This document shows, in pieces, positions 3,580-60,575 of a DNA stretch of 64,000 nt. The notes beneath the pieces were generated by a model, which had not been told where the DNA came from, made no database searches, and was given only the letters and a program-made list of their open reading frames with translations. A program made the position numbers and the translations under genes. Origin of the DNA: Eledone cirrhosa. Lineage: Eukaryota. Each line of letters begins with the position of its first letter. Position 1 is the first letter of the stretch. Location of the stretch: NCBI GenBank assembly GCA_964016885.1, contig OZ024763.1:1984001-2048000 (forward strand). The letters run 5' to 3'.

Positions 3580-3968
3580 CGAACTGGAGCAATGTGAAAT
3601 AAAGTGTCTTGCTCAAGGAAACAACACATCACCCGTTCTGAGAATTGAACTCACAACCTTTCGATTGCAAGGCCAATGCTCTAACCACTAATTCTCAGAC
3701 CGGGTGATGTGTTGTTTCCTTGAGCAAGACACTTTATTTCACATTGCTCCAGTTTACTCAGCTGTAGAAATGAGATGATAGGGACTGGGGTCCATATCAT
3801 TCCACTGCAAAGTGGTCGCGGAGGTGCCACGGCAAAAAAGCACCCAGCACTCACTGTAAATGAGGTTGGTGTTAGGAAGGGCATCCAGCTGTAGAAATCA
3901 AGCCAGAATCAGTTGCTGTCCCACCCTTGCAAGCAGGGAAAAGCAGACGTAAAATGAAATGAAAATGA

Positions 3969-9526: not shown

Positions 9527-9598
9527 ACTTTTTTAAATGGAAGTTGATCAATATTTTATGGTACGTCAAATTTATTTATAAAACTGCTTATATATTGT

Positions 9599-9662
9599 AT
9601 TTTATCTGAAGAAGGCATGCCATATTTTTAATATGGTATCCCTGAAATATGTATAATGAAAT
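9599..9662 (+). ncRNA. Type I hammerhead ribozyme motif (family H1) in a TA-flanked element, 9527-9795
   Basis: attttat CTGAAGA [agg..atgccatatt ttt aatatggtat..cct] GAAA tatgt ATA^ atgaaat. Confidence 0.7.
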
Positions 9663-10149
9663 AAATATGGTTTTATAAATATAGTTTCCATTTGTTTAAT
9701 ATCGTATATCTACTCCAAAACTTGTTGAGTGCTTTATATCAGTTATAAAATATTTACTCGTTGTAACCCAACAATTTTAAATAAAACTTTTGCATATATA
9801 TATATATATATATTAGTGGGTTCTCTTCTTGCTCACATCTCACTCACGTCGGACGGTCTGAATCTTGATCGCTCATGAAATCCACCCAGCTTATGCTGAC
9901 CGGATAACCATGTTGCATGTTTATTCCTATCTTTGCGTTGCTTTCATCCTTCTATGTTGTTTACTTGTCTCACTCGCTTTACGCGATTTACTTGTGCCAA
10001 TAGCTTTATTTAGCTATTGCTCACACCAACCTGAGGTATATGATTTTTAATGCGATGAAATACCAATGATGGTTGGCAAATCACTGACGAAGGACTATTT
10101 TTATCATATGTAACCCATGTGCAACCACGCAGTATTCTTCTTTCTTCTC

Positions 10150-10190
<41 letters not shown>

Positions 10191-12110: not shown

Positions 12111-12591
12111 TTTGAACACTTTTATTCGTGCACGGAAAAGACATTTCCTTTCTGAATATTTCAACCTCTGTCTGGATGGGTGACGGAAAATGACTTTTAA
12201 GGGAAATACTAGAACATCTTCTAAAACAGGCAATTCTTCTTTTGTCCTCCATTAAGTTCGGTCCTGTATGGGAGGGGTGAGTTTGTTTAACAACCACGTG
12301 GTCCTGTATTCAGATTCGAGAGCAGCACTTAACTTACTGGATTGTTTCGTACATCGATGTATATATAAATGTAATTGCTTCCATATTCTCAGACATGCTG
12401 TTACATTCACACAGTCACCTACACAGACAACTGCACATACTCACACACACTTACACACACGTACACATGCACACACACACACATATATATATATATATCC
12501 ATATATATATATACGTAAATATATAAATATATGTATATATATGGCATAGAAGTTTATAAACTTACACACTCGTACGTACATATATATATAT

Positions 12592-14097
12592 GGAGTTGTT
12601 CCGAAGGAATGGCGTAGCAGCATCATCGTTAACTGCTATAAGGGAAAAGGAGATGCCCTAGATAGGAGTAACTATAGAGGCATTAAATTAATCGACCAGG
12701 TCATGAAGGTCACGGAAAAAGTAATAGCGCAACTAATCAGAGAGAGAATTGATCTAGATGAAATGCAGTTCGGGTTTGTGTCAGGCAAAAGTACCACAGA
12801 CGCTCTTTTCATTGTACGACAACTACAGGAGAAGTACCTAGCTAAAAGTAAACCCCTATACTTAGCTTTCGTCGACTTGGAGAAAGCCTTCGACAGAGTC
12901 CCCCGTTCCATTATCTGGTGGTCTCTTAGAAAACTAGGTGTTGACGAATGGCTTGTGAGAGCTATACAAGCCATGTATAAAGAAACAGTCAGTAAGGTTA
13001 GAATTAACAACGAATATAGTGAAGAGTTTAGCGTAAAAGTTGGTGTCCATCAGGGCTCTGTTCTTAGCCCCCTACTATTTATTATTGCCCTTCAGGCTAT
13101 AACAGAGGAGTTCAAGACCGGCTGCCCATGGGAACTCCTATATGCAGATGATCTAACGCTCATAGCTGAATCAATGACCGAACTAGAGAAGAAATTCCAA
13201 ACCTGGAAGCACGGCCTAGAATCAAAAGGCCTTAAAATTAACCTGGCTAAGACTAAAGTTCTAGTTTGTAGGAAAGAAAATAAGGCGGCGGTCCCATCGG
13301 GGAAATGGCCATGCTCAGTGTGTAGGAAAGGCGTAGGTAGAAACTCCATTTTATGTCCCAAATGCAAAGTATGGGTGCATAAAAGATGTAGTGGGATCAC
13401 AGGTAAGCTAACTAAGAACATAGATTTTACATGTGGCCGGTGCTCTGGTGCAATAAGTAGCAGCAAGTGCCCACAAAATACTAGCTCCTTCAACTGCGCA
13501 GAGGGTTCTATAGAAATAGTGGACAGCTTCCGTTATCTGGGTGACAAAATCAGCAGTGGGGGAGGGTGCTCTGAAAGTACAGTAGCTAGAGTCAGAACTG
13601 GATGGAAAAAGTTCAGAGAGCTTATACCACTATTAGCCGCTAGAGGGTTCTCCCTAAAAATGAAAGGCAGGTTATACGATGCCTGCATACGAACAGCAAT
13701 GCTGCATGGCAGTGAGACCTGGGCATTGTGTGCAGAGGATATACGCAGACTAGAGAGGAACGAAGCTTGCATGCTCCGCTGGATGTGCAATAGTAATATA
13801 CGTGAACGGCAAAGCATAAACGAACTAAGGAAAAAATTAGAAATAAGAGGGATCAGATGTTGTTTACTCGAGAGAAGGCTACGTTGGTACGGTCACGTGA
13901 TGCGCATGAAAGACGACAGCTGTATAACAAAGTGCAGGGCAATAAAGATAGACGGTAGCCACGGAGTAGGCAGACCCAGAAAAACATGGGACGAGCTGAT
14001 AAATTCCGACCTCACACGCTTACACCTCTCCAAGACAATGTCACTGGACCGAGACCTTTGGCGGTACTCAGTAATAGAGAAGACCCGCCTTACCTAA
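12592..14097 (+). CDS. Partial LINE ORF: reverse transcriptase, PHD-type Cys finger and RTE C-terminus; endonuclease lost by truncation
   Basis: Frame opens 37 codons before the ORF-track ATG (GVVPKEWRSSIIVNCYKGKGDALDRSNYRGIKL); motifs QFGF, FVDLEKAFDRV, GVHQGSVLSPLLF, LYADD (YADD 13141-13152), FRYLG, RLRWYGHVMRM, GRPRKTW; no stops. Confidence 0.93.
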   Translation, partial: GVVPKEWRSSIIVNCYKGKGDALDRSNYRGIKLIDQVMKVTEKVIAQLIRERIDLDEMQFGFVSGKSTTDALFIVRQLQEKYLAKSKPLYLAFVDLEKAFDRVPRSIIWWSLRKLGVDEWLVRAIQAMYKETVSKVRINNEYSEEFSVKVGVHQGSVLSPLLFIIALQAITEEFKTGCPWELLYADDLTLIAESMTELEKKFQTWKHGLESKGLKINLAKTKVLVCRKENKAAVPSGKWPCSVCRKGVGRNSILCPKCKVWVHKRCSGITGKLTKNIDFTCGRCSGAISSSKCPQNTSSFNCAEGSIEIVDSFRYLGDKISSGGGCSESTVARVRTGWKKFRELIPLLAARGFSLKMKGRLYDACIRTAMLHGSETWALCAEDIRRLERNEACMLRWMCNSNIRERQSINELRKKLEIRGIRCCLLERRLRWYGHVMRMKDDSCITKCRAIKIDGSHGVGRPRKTWDELINSDLTRLHLSKTMSLDRDLWRYSVIEKTRLT

Positions 14098-15286: not shown

Positions 15287-15357
<71 letters not shown>

Positions 15358-15377
15358 ATATATATATATTATATATA

Positions 15378-15829
15378 AACGGAAAAAATGAAACGAAATT
15401 TTATTTCTCACTCTTTGTATGGCTGTTACTTAAATATAATTATGTATACGTACATACATATATGTATACAGACGTAATATGCATAAGGAAAGTATATACT
15501 CTCAGACGTTCAATCATCTGGCAGGAAGGTATACGTTGCTGACGATAGCTAATAAGCTTGAAACTAGTACAGCGTTCCTTTGTTCAAATGAGCAACGATG
15601 GTTGCTAGACACTGTACGGCTTAATTCGGGATGTTTGTTTACAAACACACCCAGCATTATAATAAATGTGAATCCATACGTACATATATATATGTGTGCA
15701 TGTATGTATATATATATATATACATACTACTGTACGTCTGTATACATATATGTATGTACGTATACATACTTATATTTAAGTAACAGCCATACTAAGAGTG
15801 AGAAATGAAATTTCGTTTCATTTTTTCCG

Positions 15830-15831
<2 letters not shown>
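15378..15831. mobile_element. TA-flanked inverted-repeat element (arms about 15378-15478 and 15732-15831) enclosing an HHR
   Basis: acggaaaaaatgaaacgaaattt...cagacgta is the reverse complement of tacgtctg...aaatttcgtttcattttttccgt. Confidence 0.8.
15533..15575 (+). ncRNA. Minimal type I hammerhead ribozyme
   Basis: acgttg CTGACGA t agct aata agct t GAA AC ta GT A^ cagcgt; helix III region is the palindrome ACTAGT. Confidence 0.8.
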
Positions 15832-15888
<57 letters not shown>

Positions 15889-26938: not shown

Positions 26939-27138
26939 NNNNNNNNNNNNNNNNNNNNNNNNNNNNNNNNNNNNNNNNNNNNNNNNNNNNNNNNNNNNNN
27001 NNNNNNNNNNNNNNNNNNNNNNNNNNNNNNNNNNNNNNNNNNNNNNNNNNNNNNNNNNNNNNNNNNNNNNNNNNNNNNNNNNNNNNNNNNNNNNNNNNNN
27101 NNNNNNNNNNNNNNNNNNNNNNNNNNNNNNNNNNNNNN
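26939..27138. other. Assembly gap (200 N) with duplicated flank
   Basis: 26623-26938 is repeated at 27139-27454. Confidence 0.95.
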
Positions 27139-27435
27139 GTCACACAGAATCTCCCTGAGAACTATGTGTTTAGGGTACGCATATCTGTGGAATGCTCAGC
27201 CACTTGCATGTTAATTTCATGAGCAGGCTGTTCCATTGATCAGATCAACTGGAACACTCGTCGTCGTAACCGATGGAGTGCCCTCCATATGTTCAGGGTT
27301 TAAGTCCTCTCAGGGTCAGCTTTGCCCTTCATCCCTCCAGGGTTGATACAGTTAAACCCTTTCGTTACCAGATTTCTAATGAAAGACAATGCTTAGGATT
27401 TTCAAATAATTTTTGCCCTCAACCAAATCGATGGC

Positions 27436-33895: not shown

Positions 33896-34173
33896 ACGAT
33901 GTACAAGTCATGTTTATAAATATACTCTAGGGTAAACAGACGCATTTCTGTACTTCGTTGAATGCTCTAGCCAGCCAAAATAGAGTTCTGTTTAAGCAAC
34001 TTATGGCACGGTCAACTGACCAGACTTGTATCATAACATGGACAACCTGCCTGACCCATGCAAGCAGGGAAAAATAGACATTAAACGGTGGTGATGATGA
34101 TATATATATCTATATAGAGAGAGAATAAGAAAATGCGAAGTAGTTTCAGATGTTAAAGTCCTTTATTGATAAT

Positions 34174-34354
34174 TGTTTCTACGTTAGGCACAAGGCCAGC
34201 AAATTACCCAGTACATTACTGGTACTTTATTTTATCGACCCCGTAAGGATGAAAGGCAAAGTCAACCTTGGCGGAATTTGAACTCAGACCATAAAGGGAC
34301 GTAACTATGCTGGAAAGCATGGCGTCCGACCCTCTACCGATACTGCCAATCCAC
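34174..34354 (-). mobile_element. SINE family B with 17-bp target-site duplication
   Basis: agtcctttattgataat at 34157-34173 and 34355-34371. Confidence 0.9.
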
Positions 34355-34371
34355 AGTCCTTTATTGATAAT

Positions 34372-34446
34372 GCTGTGATACATATTTCAATGACAACAGT
34401 GGCCACACGATTCCGTGTACTCAGTGCCATGACATCATCAGACAGC
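34372..34446 (-). ncRNA. Type I hammerhead ribozyme motif
   Basis: Minus strand: gctgt CTGATGA [long stem II capped by acacg gaat cgtgt] GAAA tatgt ATC^ acagc. Confidence 0.7.
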
Positions 34447-34602
34447 TTCTTGTATAATAATAAAGTTACGTTCCCGAGGCAATCCAAATTATATATATAT
34501 ATAATTTGGATTACCTCAAGGAAAACTTGAACCAAGGAAAACTTGAACCGTTAAGGTATATTCTCCTTCGTTATGTCAAAATTTATAAAACACACTTCGT
34601 AC

Positions 34603-34657
34603 TTTATCTGATGATAGCGTACCAAAATTTTGGTACCCTTGAAATATATATAATAGA
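34603..34657 (+). ncRNA. Type I hammerhead motif (family H1)
   Basis: tttat CTGATGA [gtaccaaaa ttttggtac] GAAA tatat ATA^ ataga. Confidence 0.65.
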
Positions 34658-34700
34658 ATAAATATGGTTTTATAAATATAGTTTCCATTTATTTAATATA

Positions 34701-34765
<65 letters not shown>

Positions 34766-34861
34766 ATTAGAATACTGGAGCGTGTTTGAGTCAAACACCC
34801 TCTTCGTATTATAGAAATGACAGTAAAAGGTATAGCTCAATGCAGTTAAACAGAGCCGAAA

Positions 34862-35169
34862 AATTAAGAGAGTAAAACAAAGAATCCTTTAATACATCAA
34901 AAGTTTTTATTAGCCGACAATGTTTCGTCCTATTAAGGACTCATCAGGGCAATCAAAACAACAAGAGGTAATTTCGGCAGATACAAGCCAGAAACTCTGA
35001 AGAATATGGAGTTTACATACACTAATGTCTTACGAGTTTCTGGCTTGTATCTGCCGAAATTACCTCTTGTTGTTTTGATTGCCCTGATGAGTCCTTAATA
35101 GGACGAAACATTGTCGGCTAATAAAAACTTTTGATGTATTAAAGGATTCTTTGTTTTACTCTCTTAATT
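34862..35169. mobile_element. Palindromic HHR element, 136-bp arms and 36-bp spacer
   Basis: 34862-34997 is the reverse complement of 35034-35169 and is followed by (TA)n. Confidence 0.9.
35075..35124 (+). ncRNA. Canonical-core minimal type I hammerhead ribozyme (mirror copy on minus strand, about 34907-34956)
   Basis: ttgattgcc CTGATGA gtcct taat aggac GAA AC att GT C^ ggctaataa. Confidence 0.88.
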
Positions 35170-35190
35170 ATATATATATATATATATATA

Positions 35191-35704
35191 TAAAAGAAGT
35201 TAATATCCCCACAGGTACTAAGTACCCCTGGAAATATATAGAGTGTCTATGATACAGTGGTTGTTCTATGGTATTAATTTGACATACCAGAACCATAAAA
35301 TTGAGATAAGGGGAGCAAGCAAGATTCAAACATTTTTTTAAAATAAATTAAAAAATATAATTTAAATATTTACCTAATCCATTTGCTTTTACCGAACGGT
35401 TTCACTTCACAAAAGATTGGAGATCCCTAGGGACCTCCAATGGAAAAGTTTAGATCATCAGAAAGCATGTCCCTAGGGATCTCCAATCTTTTGTGAAGTG
35501 AAACCGTTCGATAAAAGCAATTGGAATATTTAAATTATATTTTTTAATTTATTTTAAAAAGTTGTTTGAATCTTGCTTGCTCCACTTATCTCAATTATAT
35601 AGTTCTGGTATGTCAAATTAATACCATAGAACAACCACTGTATCATAGACACCCTATATATTTCCAGGGGTACTTAGTACCTGTGGGGATATTAACTTCT
35701 TTTA
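35191..35704. mobile_element. Palindromic HHR element, ~240-bp arms
   Basis: 35191-35434 against 35469-35704, (TA)n on both sides. Confidence 0.9.
35385..35466 (-). ncRNA. Type I hammerhead-like motif with extended stem II
   Basis: Minus strand: gcttt CTGATGA [..attggaggtccc ta gggatctccaat..] GAA ACCG tt CGGT A^ aaagc. Confidence 0.7.
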
Positions 35705-35869
35705 TATATATATATATATATATATAATTGGTTATGCACGAGTGCATTAATGTTTTCCAGGACACAGTGTTATGTACCGTGTAGTGGAAGGTCAGCTTAC
35801 AACAGAGTGGTGCTCAACGAAATGCAGAAAAAAGGTGTATATTCCAGTTTAGCTATATTCCGGGGCGTG

Positions 35870-36200
35870 TATAAAGAATTAAAAAGAACAGAAAGATGCA
35901 GTAAAAGAGATTTATTCGGTTCTTACGTACGTTTCAATAGACATCAATTTGCCTAGATCTCGCTACATCTATAATATTATATATTTAGTAGAGCATTCGA
36001 TATCCAATGCACAATCGATCCCATATCATCAGAGATTATGTCTGATGATATGGGATCGATTGTGCATTGGATATCGAATGCTCTACTAACTATATAATAT
36101 TATAGATGTAGCGAGATCTAGGCAAATTGATGTCTATTGAAACGTACGTAAGAACCGAATAAATCTCTTTTACTGCATCTTTCTGTTCTTTTTAATTCTT

Positions 36201-36204
<4 letters not shown>
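35870..36204. mobile_element. Palindromic HHR element, ~164-bp arms and 7-bp spacer
   Basis: 35870-36033 against 36041-36204, ending in (TA)n. Confidence 0.9.
36041..36153 (+). ncRNA. Hammerhead motif with ~90-nt stem II, helix I clipped by the inversion
   Basis: CTGATGA at 36042-36048, then GAA AC gtac GT A^ at 36139-36150 with palindromic tetraloop GTAC. Confidence 0.65.
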
Positions 36205-36231
<27 letters not shown>

Positions 36232-36773
36232 ATGTGTGTGTGCATGTGCGTATCTTTACCTTTGCTCTCGCTCTGATCAATCGACAAGATTCTAGTTCTC
36301 CTTCACTTGCCGACCAAGGAAACAATGTTTCCATTAGTCTTTCCATTGTTAACTATCTACTGGTTGCAACTCTTGGCAGAAGGAGCAATATGAAATAAAG
36401 TATCTTGCTCAAGGACACAGCACATCACCTGGTCCGAGAATTGACATTGCAACCTCACAATTGCAAATCCAATTCTTTAAACAGTAAGCCACATTCTATA
36501 TAAGCTCAATACAGACTAATATATATATAATCTTGTAAGAATATGTATGTATGATCCCATAACTCCTGATAGAGGTGTAGGGGCGCCGTATTGAATTACG
36601 GCGCTTCTTGGGTATTTTAAGCCTAGGGTAGCCCATCCTTCTCCAGGACTGAGTACAGCAGATTTCTTCCAGAGAAAGATGGAAAGTGAGAGAGAGGAAG
36701 TGAGAAAGAGATATAGAAGAAGAATCGACCCCAGTAGTAGACTGGTATTATATATATATATATATTTATATAT

Positions 36774-37104: not shown

Positions 37105-37261
37105 ATATATATGTATATATATATATATGCAAAAGTTCAATTTAAATTGTTGGGATACAACAAGCAAATATTTTTATAACTGATATAAAGCACTCAACAA
37201 ATTATTGGAGTAAAAATACGATATATTAACAAATGGAAACTATATTTATAAAACCATATTT

Positions 37262-37324
37262 ATTTCATTATACATATTTCAAGGACACCAAGTTAAATTA
37301 TGGTGTGCTTTCATCAGATAAAAT
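37262..37324 (-). ncRNA. Type I hammerhead motif (family H1) in a TA-flanked element, 37128-37365
   Basis: Minus strand: attttat CTGATGA [aag..acacca..tggtgt..ctt] GAAA tatgt ATA^ atgaaat; the element is an inverted homologue of 9560-9795. Confidence 0.72.
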
Positions 37325-37457
37325 ATAATATAGATCAGTTTTATAAATAAATATTGACATGCCCTTATATATATATATATATATGGAGAGATAGATAGAT
37401 AGATAGAGAGAGAGAAAGAGATATTGAGGAAGAATTGACCCCAGTACTAGACTGGTA

Positions 37458-37491
<34 letters not shown>

Positions 37492-37826
37492 TACCAGTCT
37501 ATATATATGGAGAGATAGATAGATAAAGAGAGATATATATAGAGGACGAATCAACCCCAGTACTAGACTGGTACTTTTTTTATCAACCTCGAAAGGATGA
37601 AAGGCAAAGTTAACCTCGGTGGGATTTGATCTCAGAGATCAGAGAGCAGAAACGAATACCACAAAGCATTCTATCCGATGTTCTAACAACTCTGGAACTA
37701 TATACTTAAGAACACTTTTAAACCACACTGTGATCTGTAATAAAACAACAGAATTCCTACAGCGCTTCTCAGAGACTCGACTCGCATTCCTCCTTTGGCA
37801 ATTCTAGTTTTCTCAAATTCTTCCTG

Positions 37827-41041: not shown

Positions 41042-41046
<5 letters not shown>

Positions 41047-41232
41047 AAGCAGTAAGACCCTGACGGCTGAGCTCAAGCCGTTTCGACGGCTAATTCTGTC
41101 CAGAATTAGCCGTCGAAACGGCTTGAGCTCAGCCGTCGGGGTCTTACTGCTTCCTATTACCCACTCTACTACCCTAAGTATTGAGTACTTTGGTGCGTTA
41201 TGGTCCACCTGGTTCCTTACCACATTTCCTTC

Positions 41233-41235
<3 letters not shown>
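41042..41235 (+). mobile_element. HHR family H2 element folded back at the stem II loop
   Basis: Arms 41042-41098 and 41101-41157; GAAA at 41115, helix III ACGGC/GCCGT, GTC^ at 41135-41137; (TA)n on both sides. Confidence 0.85.
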
Positions 41236-41290
<55 letters not shown>

Positions 41291-41307
41291 TATGTATATA
41301 TGTGTGG

Positions 41308-41345
<38 letters not shown>

Positions 41346-41351
<6 letters not shown>

Positions 41352-41638
41352 AGATCAAAAGATGGTTAAAAGAGTTCCATGGATTTTATTATGCGCATTT
41401 CAAAAACAAATATCATGCAATAACATTTGCGTTTTTGTCAGATAAAATAGGAAGATATGACATGAAATGTTATTGCATGATGATATTTGTTTTTGAAATG
41501 CACATAATAAAATACATGGAACTCTTTTAACCATCTTTTGATCTTATATATTATTTATACTCCAGTCCTACAAACTGTAGAGTGCTTCTTATCCGATATC
41601 TGCATTGCTTTATTGTACTACAATAAAACTCACCACCT

Positions 41639-41640
<2 letters not shown>
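41346..41640. mobile_element. Palindromic H1-related element with an HHR on the minus strand (41383-41448)
   Basis: Arms 41346-41427 and 41465-41551; minus strand attttat CTGACAA [stem II] GAA AT gcgc AT A^ ataaaat. Confidence 0.75.
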
Positions 41641-41689
<49 letters not shown>

Positions 41690-42090
41690 AAAACAATGAA
41701 ATAAAAAATCAAGTCATTAGAGATATACTTCACTGCTTTACGATCGTTTCTAGATGGTGATAATACATTGTATCTATACTCAGTTATTGATCTATGTAAG
41801 TTTACAAACTATCAGATAGAGAGAATATTTACTTACATGCATATCACCAGCTGTTTTCAAAAGCTTAACCTACAACATTTTCAACATATGGATTACATTG
41901 AGTTCTTCATACAGAAAAGACCCCACAACTTACAGTGGATACCTCTGTGTATATATAATGCGATGAAATACCAATGATGGTTGGCAAATCACTGATGAGG
42001 GACTAATTTTATAATATGTAATCCATGTGCAACCATGCAGTATTCTTCTCCCCTTGTTTTTCACATATATATATATATATATATAAATAG

Positions 42091-42125
<35 letters not shown>

Positions 42126-42156
42126 TATATATGTGTATATATATATATATATATAT

Positions 42157-42350
42157 AACAAAGGAATTGTGGTAAGGAACCAGATGGACCGATAACGCAC
42201 CAGAGTACTCAATACTTAGGGTAGTAGAGTGGGAAATAGGAAAAAGTATGACCCCGACGGCAGAGCTCAAGCCGTTTGGACGGCTATTTCGAATCCAGAA
42301 ATAGCCGTCGAAACGGCTTGAGCTCTGCCGTCGGGGTCATACTTTTTCCT
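42157..42350 (-). mobile_element. HHR family H2 element folded back at stem II
   Basis: Palindrome 42238-42350 centred near 42294; the tail matches the reverse complement of 41157-41235. Confidence 0.85.
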
Positions 42351-42490
42351 GTATATATATAATGTAGAAGGTGAGTAATATTGTAGAACAATAAAACTAT
42401 GCATATATCAGATAAGTAGCACTCAACAGTTGGTAGAACTGGAGTATATATTAAAGAAGAAATTAAAATATGGTTAAAGAAGTTCCATAT

Positions 42491-42558
42491 ATTTTATTAT
42501 GCGCATTTCGAAAACAACATCATCCTGGGACAAAAATTGTGTTCTCATCAGATAAAAT
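42491..42558 (-). ncRNA. Type I hammerhead ribozyme motif (H1-related element, 42362-42560)
   Basis: Minus strand: attttat CTGATGA gaac..ttttc GAA AT gcgc AT A^ ataaaat. Confidence 0.8.
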
Positions 42559-42611
42559 AAGGTAACATGATATCAGGCCTGAAAACTCTTGTCAACAGGA
42601 AAATGCAAAGC

Positions 42612-46061: not shown

Positions 46062-46191
46062 GATCTTTTTTCAGCCTTACGTTTCAACCTCATTTACATA
46101 TTCATCCCTAAGGATTTGAAATTTTTCTTTCACTATCCAAACTGAACCTGAACCGATAAGGTCTTGTTTCTTGTTATAAAACAAATTTTGC

Positions 46192-46250
46192 ATTTTATCT
46201 GATGAGGACGTACCGAAATTTTGGTACCCTTGAAATATATATAATAAAAT
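46192..46250 (+). ncRNA. Type I hammerhead motif (family H1)
   Basis: attttat CTGATGA gg..gtacc gaaatttt ggtac..cctt GAA AT atat AT A^ ataaaat. Confidence 0.75.
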
Positions 46251-46397
46251 AAATATGGTTATATAAATATAGTTTCCATTGATATATATATATATATATA
46301 CTGCTATATATGACAACACATGATAATAGTAGTGGTGGTGGTGGTAGTGGTGGTAGAAGCAGTAGCAGTAGTGGTGGTAGTAGCAGTAGCAGTAGTG

Positions 46398-50629: not shown

Positions 50630-50851
50630 TAATTGATTCTACCTTTGGCACAAGGCCAGCAATTTTGTGGGAATGGGAAAGTCCATTAAATCGACCCCAG
50701 TACATTACTGGTTCTTTATTTTATCAAACCCTGTACGGATGAAAGGCAAAGTTAACCTCGGCGGAATTTGAACTCAGACCATAAAGGGCCATAACTCTAT
50801 GCTGCAAAGCCTGGTTTCTGACTCTCTACCGATACTGGCAATCCACCGCCC
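50630..50851 (-). mobile_element. Full-length SINE family B with (aat)n tail
   Basis: Same family; (CCCTAA)3 abuts its 5' end. Confidence 0.85.
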
Positions 50852-60212: not shown

Positions 60213-60217
<5 letters not shown>

Positions 60218-60301
60218 AACGAGTAGGACCCCGACGGCTGAGCTCAAGCCGTTTCGACGGCTAATTATGATCCACCTGGTTCCTTACCACATTTCCTTCG
60301 T

Positions 60302-60338: not shown

Positions 60339-60339
<1 letters not shown>

Positions 60340-60494
60340 GTAGTTCCACAATAGTTAGTTCACCATACCGAGAGGAAATGTTTCACCTTATTTGAATCCT
60401 CAGCTTGGTCTAAATGACATTTAGACTGAGCTGGGGTCCAAATAAGGTGAAACATTTGCTCTCGGTATGGTGAACTAACTATTGTGGAACTACT
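60339..60494. mobile_element. 156-bp hairpin element carrying an HHR 3' half
   Basis: Palindrome centred at 60417; GAAAC at 60449, GTA at 60465; TA-flanked. Confidence 0.65.
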
Positions 60495-60575
60495 TCTACC
60501 AAACTCGTCCCATGGACTGAGTGCTCTACTACTACAGATGTAACCCTCCAGTGTTCTACTATTATATATGTGTGT

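Follow-up and report, generated by a model that had tools for sequence, protein, structure and literature searches.

In the window analysed (64,000 nt of AT-rich animal DNA, made up mostly of simple repeats together with SINE-like copies), the two adjacent palindromes A and B are most probably insertion stubs of several families of Penelope-like elements (PLEs), probably of the Hydra type, each palindrome being a head-to-head pair that most likely arose by twin priming. The original prediction had described two adjacent palindromes with their junctions in or beside hammerheads with a long stem II, and both are present in the sequence (Table 1); it had named no element class and had missed the one-sided tails. 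The stubs encode no protein and are probably inactive, and the locus is debris of a known type of insertion, to which the long stem II, the tail hairpin and the accumulation of junctions add modestly. What is unusual here is the very long stem II of the hammerheads and the many joins located just upstream of the ribozyme motif. Positions given as -n or +n take the first C of CUGAUGA as their origin and follow the sense of the element.

Table 1. Features of the region around palindromes A and B (positions in the window).
Feature	Positions	Strand	Description	Basis
34441 element	34112..34490	-	hammerhead-type, core 34441, stem II 46 nt	
34608 element	34572..34702	+	single 5'-truncated copy, core 34608	
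Spacer 34608 element/C	34703..34762		(TA)30	
Element C	34763..35168		minus copy 34763-35025, plus copy 35028-35168	
C tail	34763-34861	-	on minus copy; bulged hairpin 34835-34856	
Spacer C/A	35169..35191		(TA)n	
Palindrome A	35192-35703		head-to-head copies	sequence
A first copy	35192..35468	-	complete type I hammerhead; core to 3' end 269 nt	
A bulged hairpin	35263..35293	-	4-bp base, 2-nt 3' bulge, upper stem; in 3' part	
A hammerhead	35384..35467	-	core 35455-35461, stem II 35404-35454, GAAA 35400-35403	relaxed descriptor
A second copy	35469..35703	+	inverted, without CUGAUGA	sequence
A bulged hairpin, mirror copy	35602..35632	+		
Spacer A/B	35704..35725		(TA)n, presumed target remnant	
B left-copy 3' tail	35726..35872	-	one-sided, about 145 nt past the end of the right copy	
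B first copy (palindrome arm)	35873..36041	-	core 36026-36032, stem II 90 nt, GAAA 35932-35935	
B second copy	36041..36201	+	inverted, begins at -1	
B right hammerhead		+	core 36042-36048, stem II 36049-36138, GAAA 36139-36142, palindromic helix III 36142-36149	
B right flank	36202..36250		(TA)n then (TG)n	

The minus copy of A has its 5' stop 7 nt upstream of CUGAUGA (-7) and contains a complete hammerhead, with a helix I of 6 bp, a helix III of 4 bp closed by a 2-nt loop, and a predicted cut, according to the motif, after 35390, so that cleavage would give an end at +72. Its stem II, 51 nt long and with a U.U at the base, folds at -17.4 kcal/mol, and the computational folding that had been suggested for this stem gave a better structure than shuffled sequences for A (z -2.6) and for B as well (z -2.7, 200 shuffles). 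The whole left copy of A also folds better than shuffles (z -3.8). The second arm had been described as restarting inside stem II, and it does so at 35469 (+27, counted from the first core base). Both arms end at the same 3' end, without a one-sided tail, and differ by eight substitutions and one 8-nt gap. A family contig from run X1 covers 35341-35468 with 18 substitutions and no gaps, indicating that the long stem II of A characterises the family and did not arise by accident in this copy. Loose ends of matches from X4 and X11 at 35375-35407 come from sister families that share the 3' part of A and differ in the stem II hairpin or in the palindromic helix III.

In palindrome B, the left copy stops 9 nt upstream of the core (-9), and the inversion one base before CUGAUGA was as predicted. 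Stem II, expected to be of about 90 nt, is exactly that long and forms a single long imperfect hairpin, and the helix III region with its GUAC is a perfect 8-nt palindrome having these letters in the middle. Helix I, incomplete, has only 3 bp, and for this reason B failed both the strict and the relaxed hammerhead descriptors; the cut predicted from the motif falls after 36150. The fold of the whole left copy was no better than that of shuffled sequences (z -0.02). The two arms of B differ at one of 161 sites and end at two different recurrent ends of the family, with different flanks outside. An extent of 35870-36204 had been proposed, of which the junction was correct and the left boundary was not, since B runs on to about 35726. 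For this tail, an X6 record (35790-35906) bridges position 35870, where 27 X6 contigs turn TA-rich, and contig support is contiguous to 35768, with depth only past that point. The tail fails the strict bulged-hairpin descriptor. Two X4 records match the left copy, at 35892-36040 with one differing letter and at 35961-36041 with four.

For the search of further copies, positions 34765-36330 were compared with four of 13 sequencing runs, X1, X4, X6 (another organism) and X11 (the same species label, from another study); X1 was not treated as independent because it is possibly related to the source of the window. Matches were found in 963 contigs of X1, 1826 reads of X11, 2436 contigs of X6 and 14 contigs of X4, and A and B each belong to a multi-copy family. 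All figures given here for the runs correspond to the best-supported rows among the matches listed. Sixty metagenome loci matching the motif of family B were discarded as chance matches, with a similarity never extending beyond about 30 nt and no TA runs. In the whole window, the strict hammerhead descriptor found four distinct cores against a mean of 0.23 in shuffled sequences (maximum 2, 100 shuffles), and the relaxed one found eight against 0.6 (maximum 3). The Rfam model RF00163 (Hammerhead_1) did not match A or B at E values up to 10 and scored C at 31.7 bits, under the gathering score of 34; over the whole window, Rfam gave mainly matches of microRNA models on simple repeats.

Five hammerhead-type elements lie within 34377-36150, with cores at 34441 (-), 34608 (+), 34947 (-) and 35084 (+), 35461 (-), and 36032 (-) and 36042 (+), and no BLAST similarity was detected among them, in agreement with the claim of five elements of different families in less than 2 kb. 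The U.U at the base of stem II is common to the elements A, B, 34441 and 34608; the cores of C correspond to hammerheads with a short stem. The elements had also been described as mostly separated by (TA)n. This is right for the three successive spacers between the 34608 element, C, A and B, which are pure (TA)n once 35726-35872 and 34763-34861 are recognised as family tails; these tails had been taken for spacers. Element C is represented by an X4 record (34766-34952), and X11 molecules end at 34862 (203 molecules), 34865 (94) and 34766 (36). A further 53 X11 molecules pile up at 34953, 6 nt upstream of the C core, where the adjacent depth is 113; this was not taken as evidence of truncation because many variants begin there and divergent subfamilies could look alike. 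The 34441 element contains a SINE-like copy (34158-34372) with a 16-nt direct repeat (34158-34173 and 34357-34372), an arrangement that makes the SINE-like copy the younger of the two.

The proposal of an insertion hotspot also held, in that five of 15 hand-listed elements of the window share a stretch of 1.7 kb (P 3.5e-4 if placement were uniform, which is a crude null here), or five of 21 when doubtful elements are included (P 1.4e-3 under the same crude null), and the median gap between elements is 635 nt where 2971 would be expected. It is not the only such site in the window: a second cluster occupies 41046-42560, and the hotspot is ordinary target splitting. Single copies such as 37129-37368 and 9551-9794 have (TA)n at both ends, and the idea that each event retains its target can be accepted without any special mechanism, because a TA run divided by an insertion persists as a target on both sides; nothing in the sequence points to new TA being generated by the element. 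Two short inverted copies of the opposite geometry to A and B, flanking a TA run that occupies the centre (34470-34526 and 37433-37501), possibly reflect fold-back repair at TA.

Other insertions were also detected in the window. Four single copies of one hammerhead family (9551-9794, 37129-37368, 34572-34702 and 46174-46290, with cores at 9606(+), 37317(-), 34608(+) and 46199(+)) differ in their 5' stops, and their 3' ends fall into two classes. Three head-to-head insertions (41046-41232, 42160-42350 and 60216-60300) form one further family, in which no copy has CUGAUGA, a long palindromic helix follows GAAA, and a one-sided tail carries a bulged hairpin; in two of its copies the centre is a short hairpin immediately preceding GAAA, and the arms of 60216-60300 have no overlap at all. 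The palindrome at 41339-41650, with the core CUGACAA and a 5' stop at about -26, is built like A, one arm containing the whole motif and the other restarting in stem II, and its tail of about 100 nt, absent from the other arm, sits on the arm with the shorter 5' end; a single relative of it is found at 42352-42560. Two more head-to-head pairs lie in TA runs, one at 60339-60560, whose core is degenerate and whose tail hairpin has a 1-nt bulge, and another at 15339-15862 with a hammerhead at 15539. Finally, two copies 94% alike (10048-10155 and 41956-42065) have a CUGANGA box and a hairpin, lack a GAAA box, and each end at (TA)n. One-sided tails were found again at 41046, 41339, 42160 and 60339.

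Downstream of the hammerhead, the families of A, C, 9606, 41046 and 42551 share a bulged hairpin with a base of 4 bp, an upper stem and, on the 3' side, a bulge of 2 nt. A descriptor of this hairpin gave 12 matches in the window against a mean of 1.9 in shuffled sequences (maximum 7, 200 shuffles), an enrichment that is overstated because the descriptor was drawn up after several matches had been seen, and three of the 12 (10266, 18376 and 45401) have no hammerhead nearby. In the C, 41046 and 41339 pairs the hairpin is located beyond the short 3' end. The same topology was judged by eye to be present at the 3' ends of Hydra-2_Amil and Hydra-2_Ajap. Since it is located where the Anolis PLE protein needs RNA downstream of its start sites, the hairpin is, by analogy, a putative protein-binding site.

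The joints themselves were compared among copies. Among the 13 joints of the B region listed in X6, seven have a first copy stopping at -7 to -9 (P from 6e-8 to 7e-4 under a uniform null, corrected for the choice of window and depending on the assumed span), a pile-up possibly biased by the B reference itself stopping at -9. Against such a bias, extensions up to 40 nt longer would appear as shared filler, and at these seven joints just two fillers match the upstream letters, by 1-3 nt. Six of the seven are inversions, restarting at +68, +73, +74, +87, +91 and +102, and they represent separate events because their restarts and fillers differ; the seventh is head-to-tail (36041 to 35870), the only joint in direct orientation among the 13, none being present in the region itself. 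One X6 joint (two contigs) has its restart at +109, immediately past the cut predicted for B. The position -9 is not an absolute start, since 12 X6 contigs extend past 36040 with partly shared letters (agreement 0.76). The junction microhomology is 0-1 nt in A and B. The expectation that junctions fall at the hammerhead is right for those seven joints of family B and not for the other six, which lie away from -7 to -9, nor for the three A-family joints listed in X6, all of them downstream of the cut site. It also failed for C, whose junction, placed beside the hammerhead by the original prediction, lies 56-78 nt upstream of the core (-78/-56). In other families of the window the 5' stops vary from about -26 to -80, and the pile-up just upstream of the hammerhead in family B is not a rule for all families. 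Regarding the opposite end, both copies of each palindrome face outwards and abut (TA)n with their 3' ends, and B and C have two recurrent 3' ends each, with the longer one on one side only.

Several traits point to PLEs. In the excerpts available from the architecture papers, PLE insertions are described as having an inverted, 5'-truncated copy and a one-sided tail (PMC8557442, PMC3846280), and head-to-head truncated copies of this kind are present in A, B, C and the six inversions near the core listed in X6; none of the stubs extends more than about 80 nt upstream of the core. A tail at one end only was found in B, C, 41046, 41339, 42160 and 60339, and a type I hammerhead is present near the 3' end in the same sense, with the 3-bp helix I in the case of B. 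Like endonuclease-bearing PLEs and the Anolis element PAc, these insertions also have two 3' ends past the hammerhead and an AT-rich target; unlike them, both copies are truncated to 130-320 nt and the tails measure 100-145 nt, the published ones being of 30-40 bp in the part of PMC8557442 at hand. According to the same source, in its accessible part, almost all families of the Hydra clade target (TA)n, 14 of 26 Hydra rows of its File S2 have a U.U at the base of stem II, Hydra-1_Obim comes from Octopus bimaculoides, and Penelope-13_HM has an inverted 5'-truncated copy (Craig et al. 2021). Insertion into (TA)n, a type I hammerhead close to the 3' end, the U.U, a near-palindromic stem III of 3-4 bp and an A/U/C cut site are all found here. 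On the other hand, the short stem II of the listed Hydra rows, at most about 24 nt in that file (about 52 nt in one plant PLE row), is not matched by the 51 nt of A and the 90 nt of B, this being a listed trait and not a definition of the clade; the distance from core to end, up to about 306 nt, and the lack of any coding region seen also set these elements apart. The likeness to Hydra consensus sequences was judged from such features and from the comparison of hairpins by eye. We infer membership of PLEs and of the Hydra clade, since no coding sequence is linked to the stubs: Pfam searches of 150 of the 234 complex reading frames of the window gave no PLE reverse transcriptase (RT) or GIY-YIG frame, the sole RT being an unrelated one at 12550. 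Naiad PLEs, which lack a canonical hammerhead in the excerpt of PMC8557442, were ruled out, as A has a complete one.

Other hammerhead systems were also compared. The minimal hammerheads of metazoan PLEs, which form opposite-strand pairs 100-700 bp apart in the available part of Cervera and de la Pena 2014 (PMC4209133), are likewise of type I, with a short helix I, a palindromic helix III suited for dimers and opposite-strand pairs, whereas they have a conserved G10.1-C11.1 pair and a helix II of 7-8 bp instead of the U.U and the 51 or 90 nt of A and B. Animal non-LTR retrozymes, reported to derive from PLE ends in the accessible text of bioRxiv 2026.07.22.740005, are also short, non-coding, provided with a type I hammerhead and tied to PLE ends, but they are formed by head-to-tail tandem units with a hammerhead each; this trait was not found here, where head-to-head pairs or single copies are present.

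From published PLE biochemistry, the RT-endonuclease of the element would cut both strands of a TA run, and reverse transcription would be primed on both sides, each time at either of two start sites located 85-310 nt downstream of the hammerhead. Both cDNAs would stop early, and a head-to-head joint with 0-1 nt of microhomology or a short filler would then connect them. Often, one of them would pass the whole hammerhead and stop 7-9 nt upstream of CUGAUGA, and the second one would stop in or after the long stem II. The insertion would split the TA run into two remaining targets, and in this way unrelated families could pile up side by side. In line with these steps, both strands were cut and extended in vitro by the Anolis PLE PAc, cleavage by the hammerhead was dispensable, and two RT start sites were located about 110 nt into a frame that starts at the hammerhead (PMC11167929, in part). 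As for the stop at -7 to -9, the most likely explanation, at about even odds, is a preferred 5' end of the template RNA; it may correspond to an RNA 5' end, to a splice boundary, as an intron of Drosophila Penelope ends at helix I in the part of PMC4209133 at hand, or to the start of a non-autonomous master copy. A more active role of the ribozyme, in which it would organise the insertion itself, is quite improbable: short RNAs starting at -7 to -9 would pair through the palindromic helix III, the tail hairpin would load them on a dimeric enzyme, they would be copied from opposite strands of one TA site, and the cDNAs would meet at the hammerhead. If true, PLE hammerheads would have a structural role without cleavage, which would explain the head-to-head insertions and the one-sided tails together. 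Formation of an RNA dimer through the self-pairing helix III may be allowed, as the modelled pairing between two RNAs yields -11.2 kcal/mol for A and -9.8 kcal/mol for B.

Two alternatives keep the same or closely related elements and change the way in which the copies arise. The possibility, rather on the unlikely side, that A and B are dedicated non-autonomous families, similar to retrozymes or SINEs, starting at the hammerhead and mobilised by PLEs, with the long stem II having evolved there, would fit the sharp boundary of B at seven of 13 listed joints, the very high summed depth in X6, the ungapped stem II of the family contig, the lack of coding sequence in the scanned frames and the reported derivation of retrozymes from PLE ends (bioRxiv 2026.07.22.740005, accessible text). 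However, tandem monomers are missing from the region and just one listed joint is head-to-tail, some B-family contigs run further upstream with shared letters, and the remaining families of the window stop at variable positions. It is unlikely that the second arm was generated by self-priming, as the excerpts of PMC3846280 propose for Penelope palindromes, with a cDNA or antisense template folding back through the long stem II and copying itself. Such a process would also fit A, B and C individually, their second arm being wholly contained in the first, and the near identity of the arms in B and C and the two 41046-family copies centred on a short hairpin agree with it. By contrast, simple self-copying cannot give 41339-41650, where the tail of the second arm, absent from the first, belongs to the copy with the shorter 5' end; the arms of 60216-60300 do not overlap, something that a later deletion could explain, and the microhomology of A and B is minimal and the X6 joints have fillers.

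Break repair at (TA)n with fold-back copying of the adjacent DNA, independently of retrotransposition, is very improbable, because the TA-centred mirror copies at 34470-34526 and 37433-37501, which show that such events occur here, differ from A, B and C, with TA outside, the hammerhead at the centre and arms ending at recurrent family ends. That the palindromes are fold-back chimeras of sequencing or assembly is scarcely credible, even if none of the reads or contigs listed as matches crosses the middle of A or B, the whole stretch is not covered by any single piece, the B arms are nearly identical and the assembly is a draft. The arm mismatches of A had been put forward against such an artefact, and they do argue against it: most family members agree with the right arm at 35294 and 35333, with the left arm at 35298/35597 and with neither at 35311/35584, supporting that the arms decayed separately. 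Furthermore, the mirroring stops at family ends, two different ones in B, with different outer flanks, and the same build is found in contigs of another organism at depths of 14-46. Twin-primed insertion of PLE stubs is the reading that we favour.

PLE hammerhead variants were reportedly dealt with by Lunse et al. in 2017. With the junction pile-up, the hairpin of the tails and the long stem II, the role of PLE hammerheads becomes testable, and families of high copy number, in which junctions can be counted, two 3' ends are mapped and the tails share a hairpin, allow twin priming to be tested against self-priming from genome data. Counts of hammerheads in animals may be too low because Rfam and short-stem descriptors miss motifs with a stem II of 51 and 90 nt. 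In the excerpts of PMC8557442, the role of the PLE hammerhead and the origin of the inverted insertions are open questions, and the available parts of the PLE architecture papers (PMC3846280, PMC8557442, PMC11167929) do not describe 5' stops accumulating just upstream of the hammerhead. Similarly, in the open-licence literature searched, neither the junction pile-up nor the tail hairpin nor a long stem II in Hydra-type elements was found described, and for a squid genome 235 hammerheads were counted with no further analysis in the accessible part of PMC6962438.

Some additional features of the window were recorded. Its SINE-like repeats may point to an octopus as host. It contains an N gap (26940-27140) flanked by a duplicated stretch, in which 26754 and 27270 translate alike, and the assembly is therefore a draft. 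The open frame of 515 amino acids at 12550-14097, with an RVT_1 domain (E 6.5e-33) and a PHD finger inside according to Pfam, is presumably an RTE-like LINE. Three telomere-type TTAGGG units at 50770-50790 directly adjoin a SINE-like copy, and at 3582-3754 another SINE-like copy is fused to its own inverted copy, adjoining a TA run.
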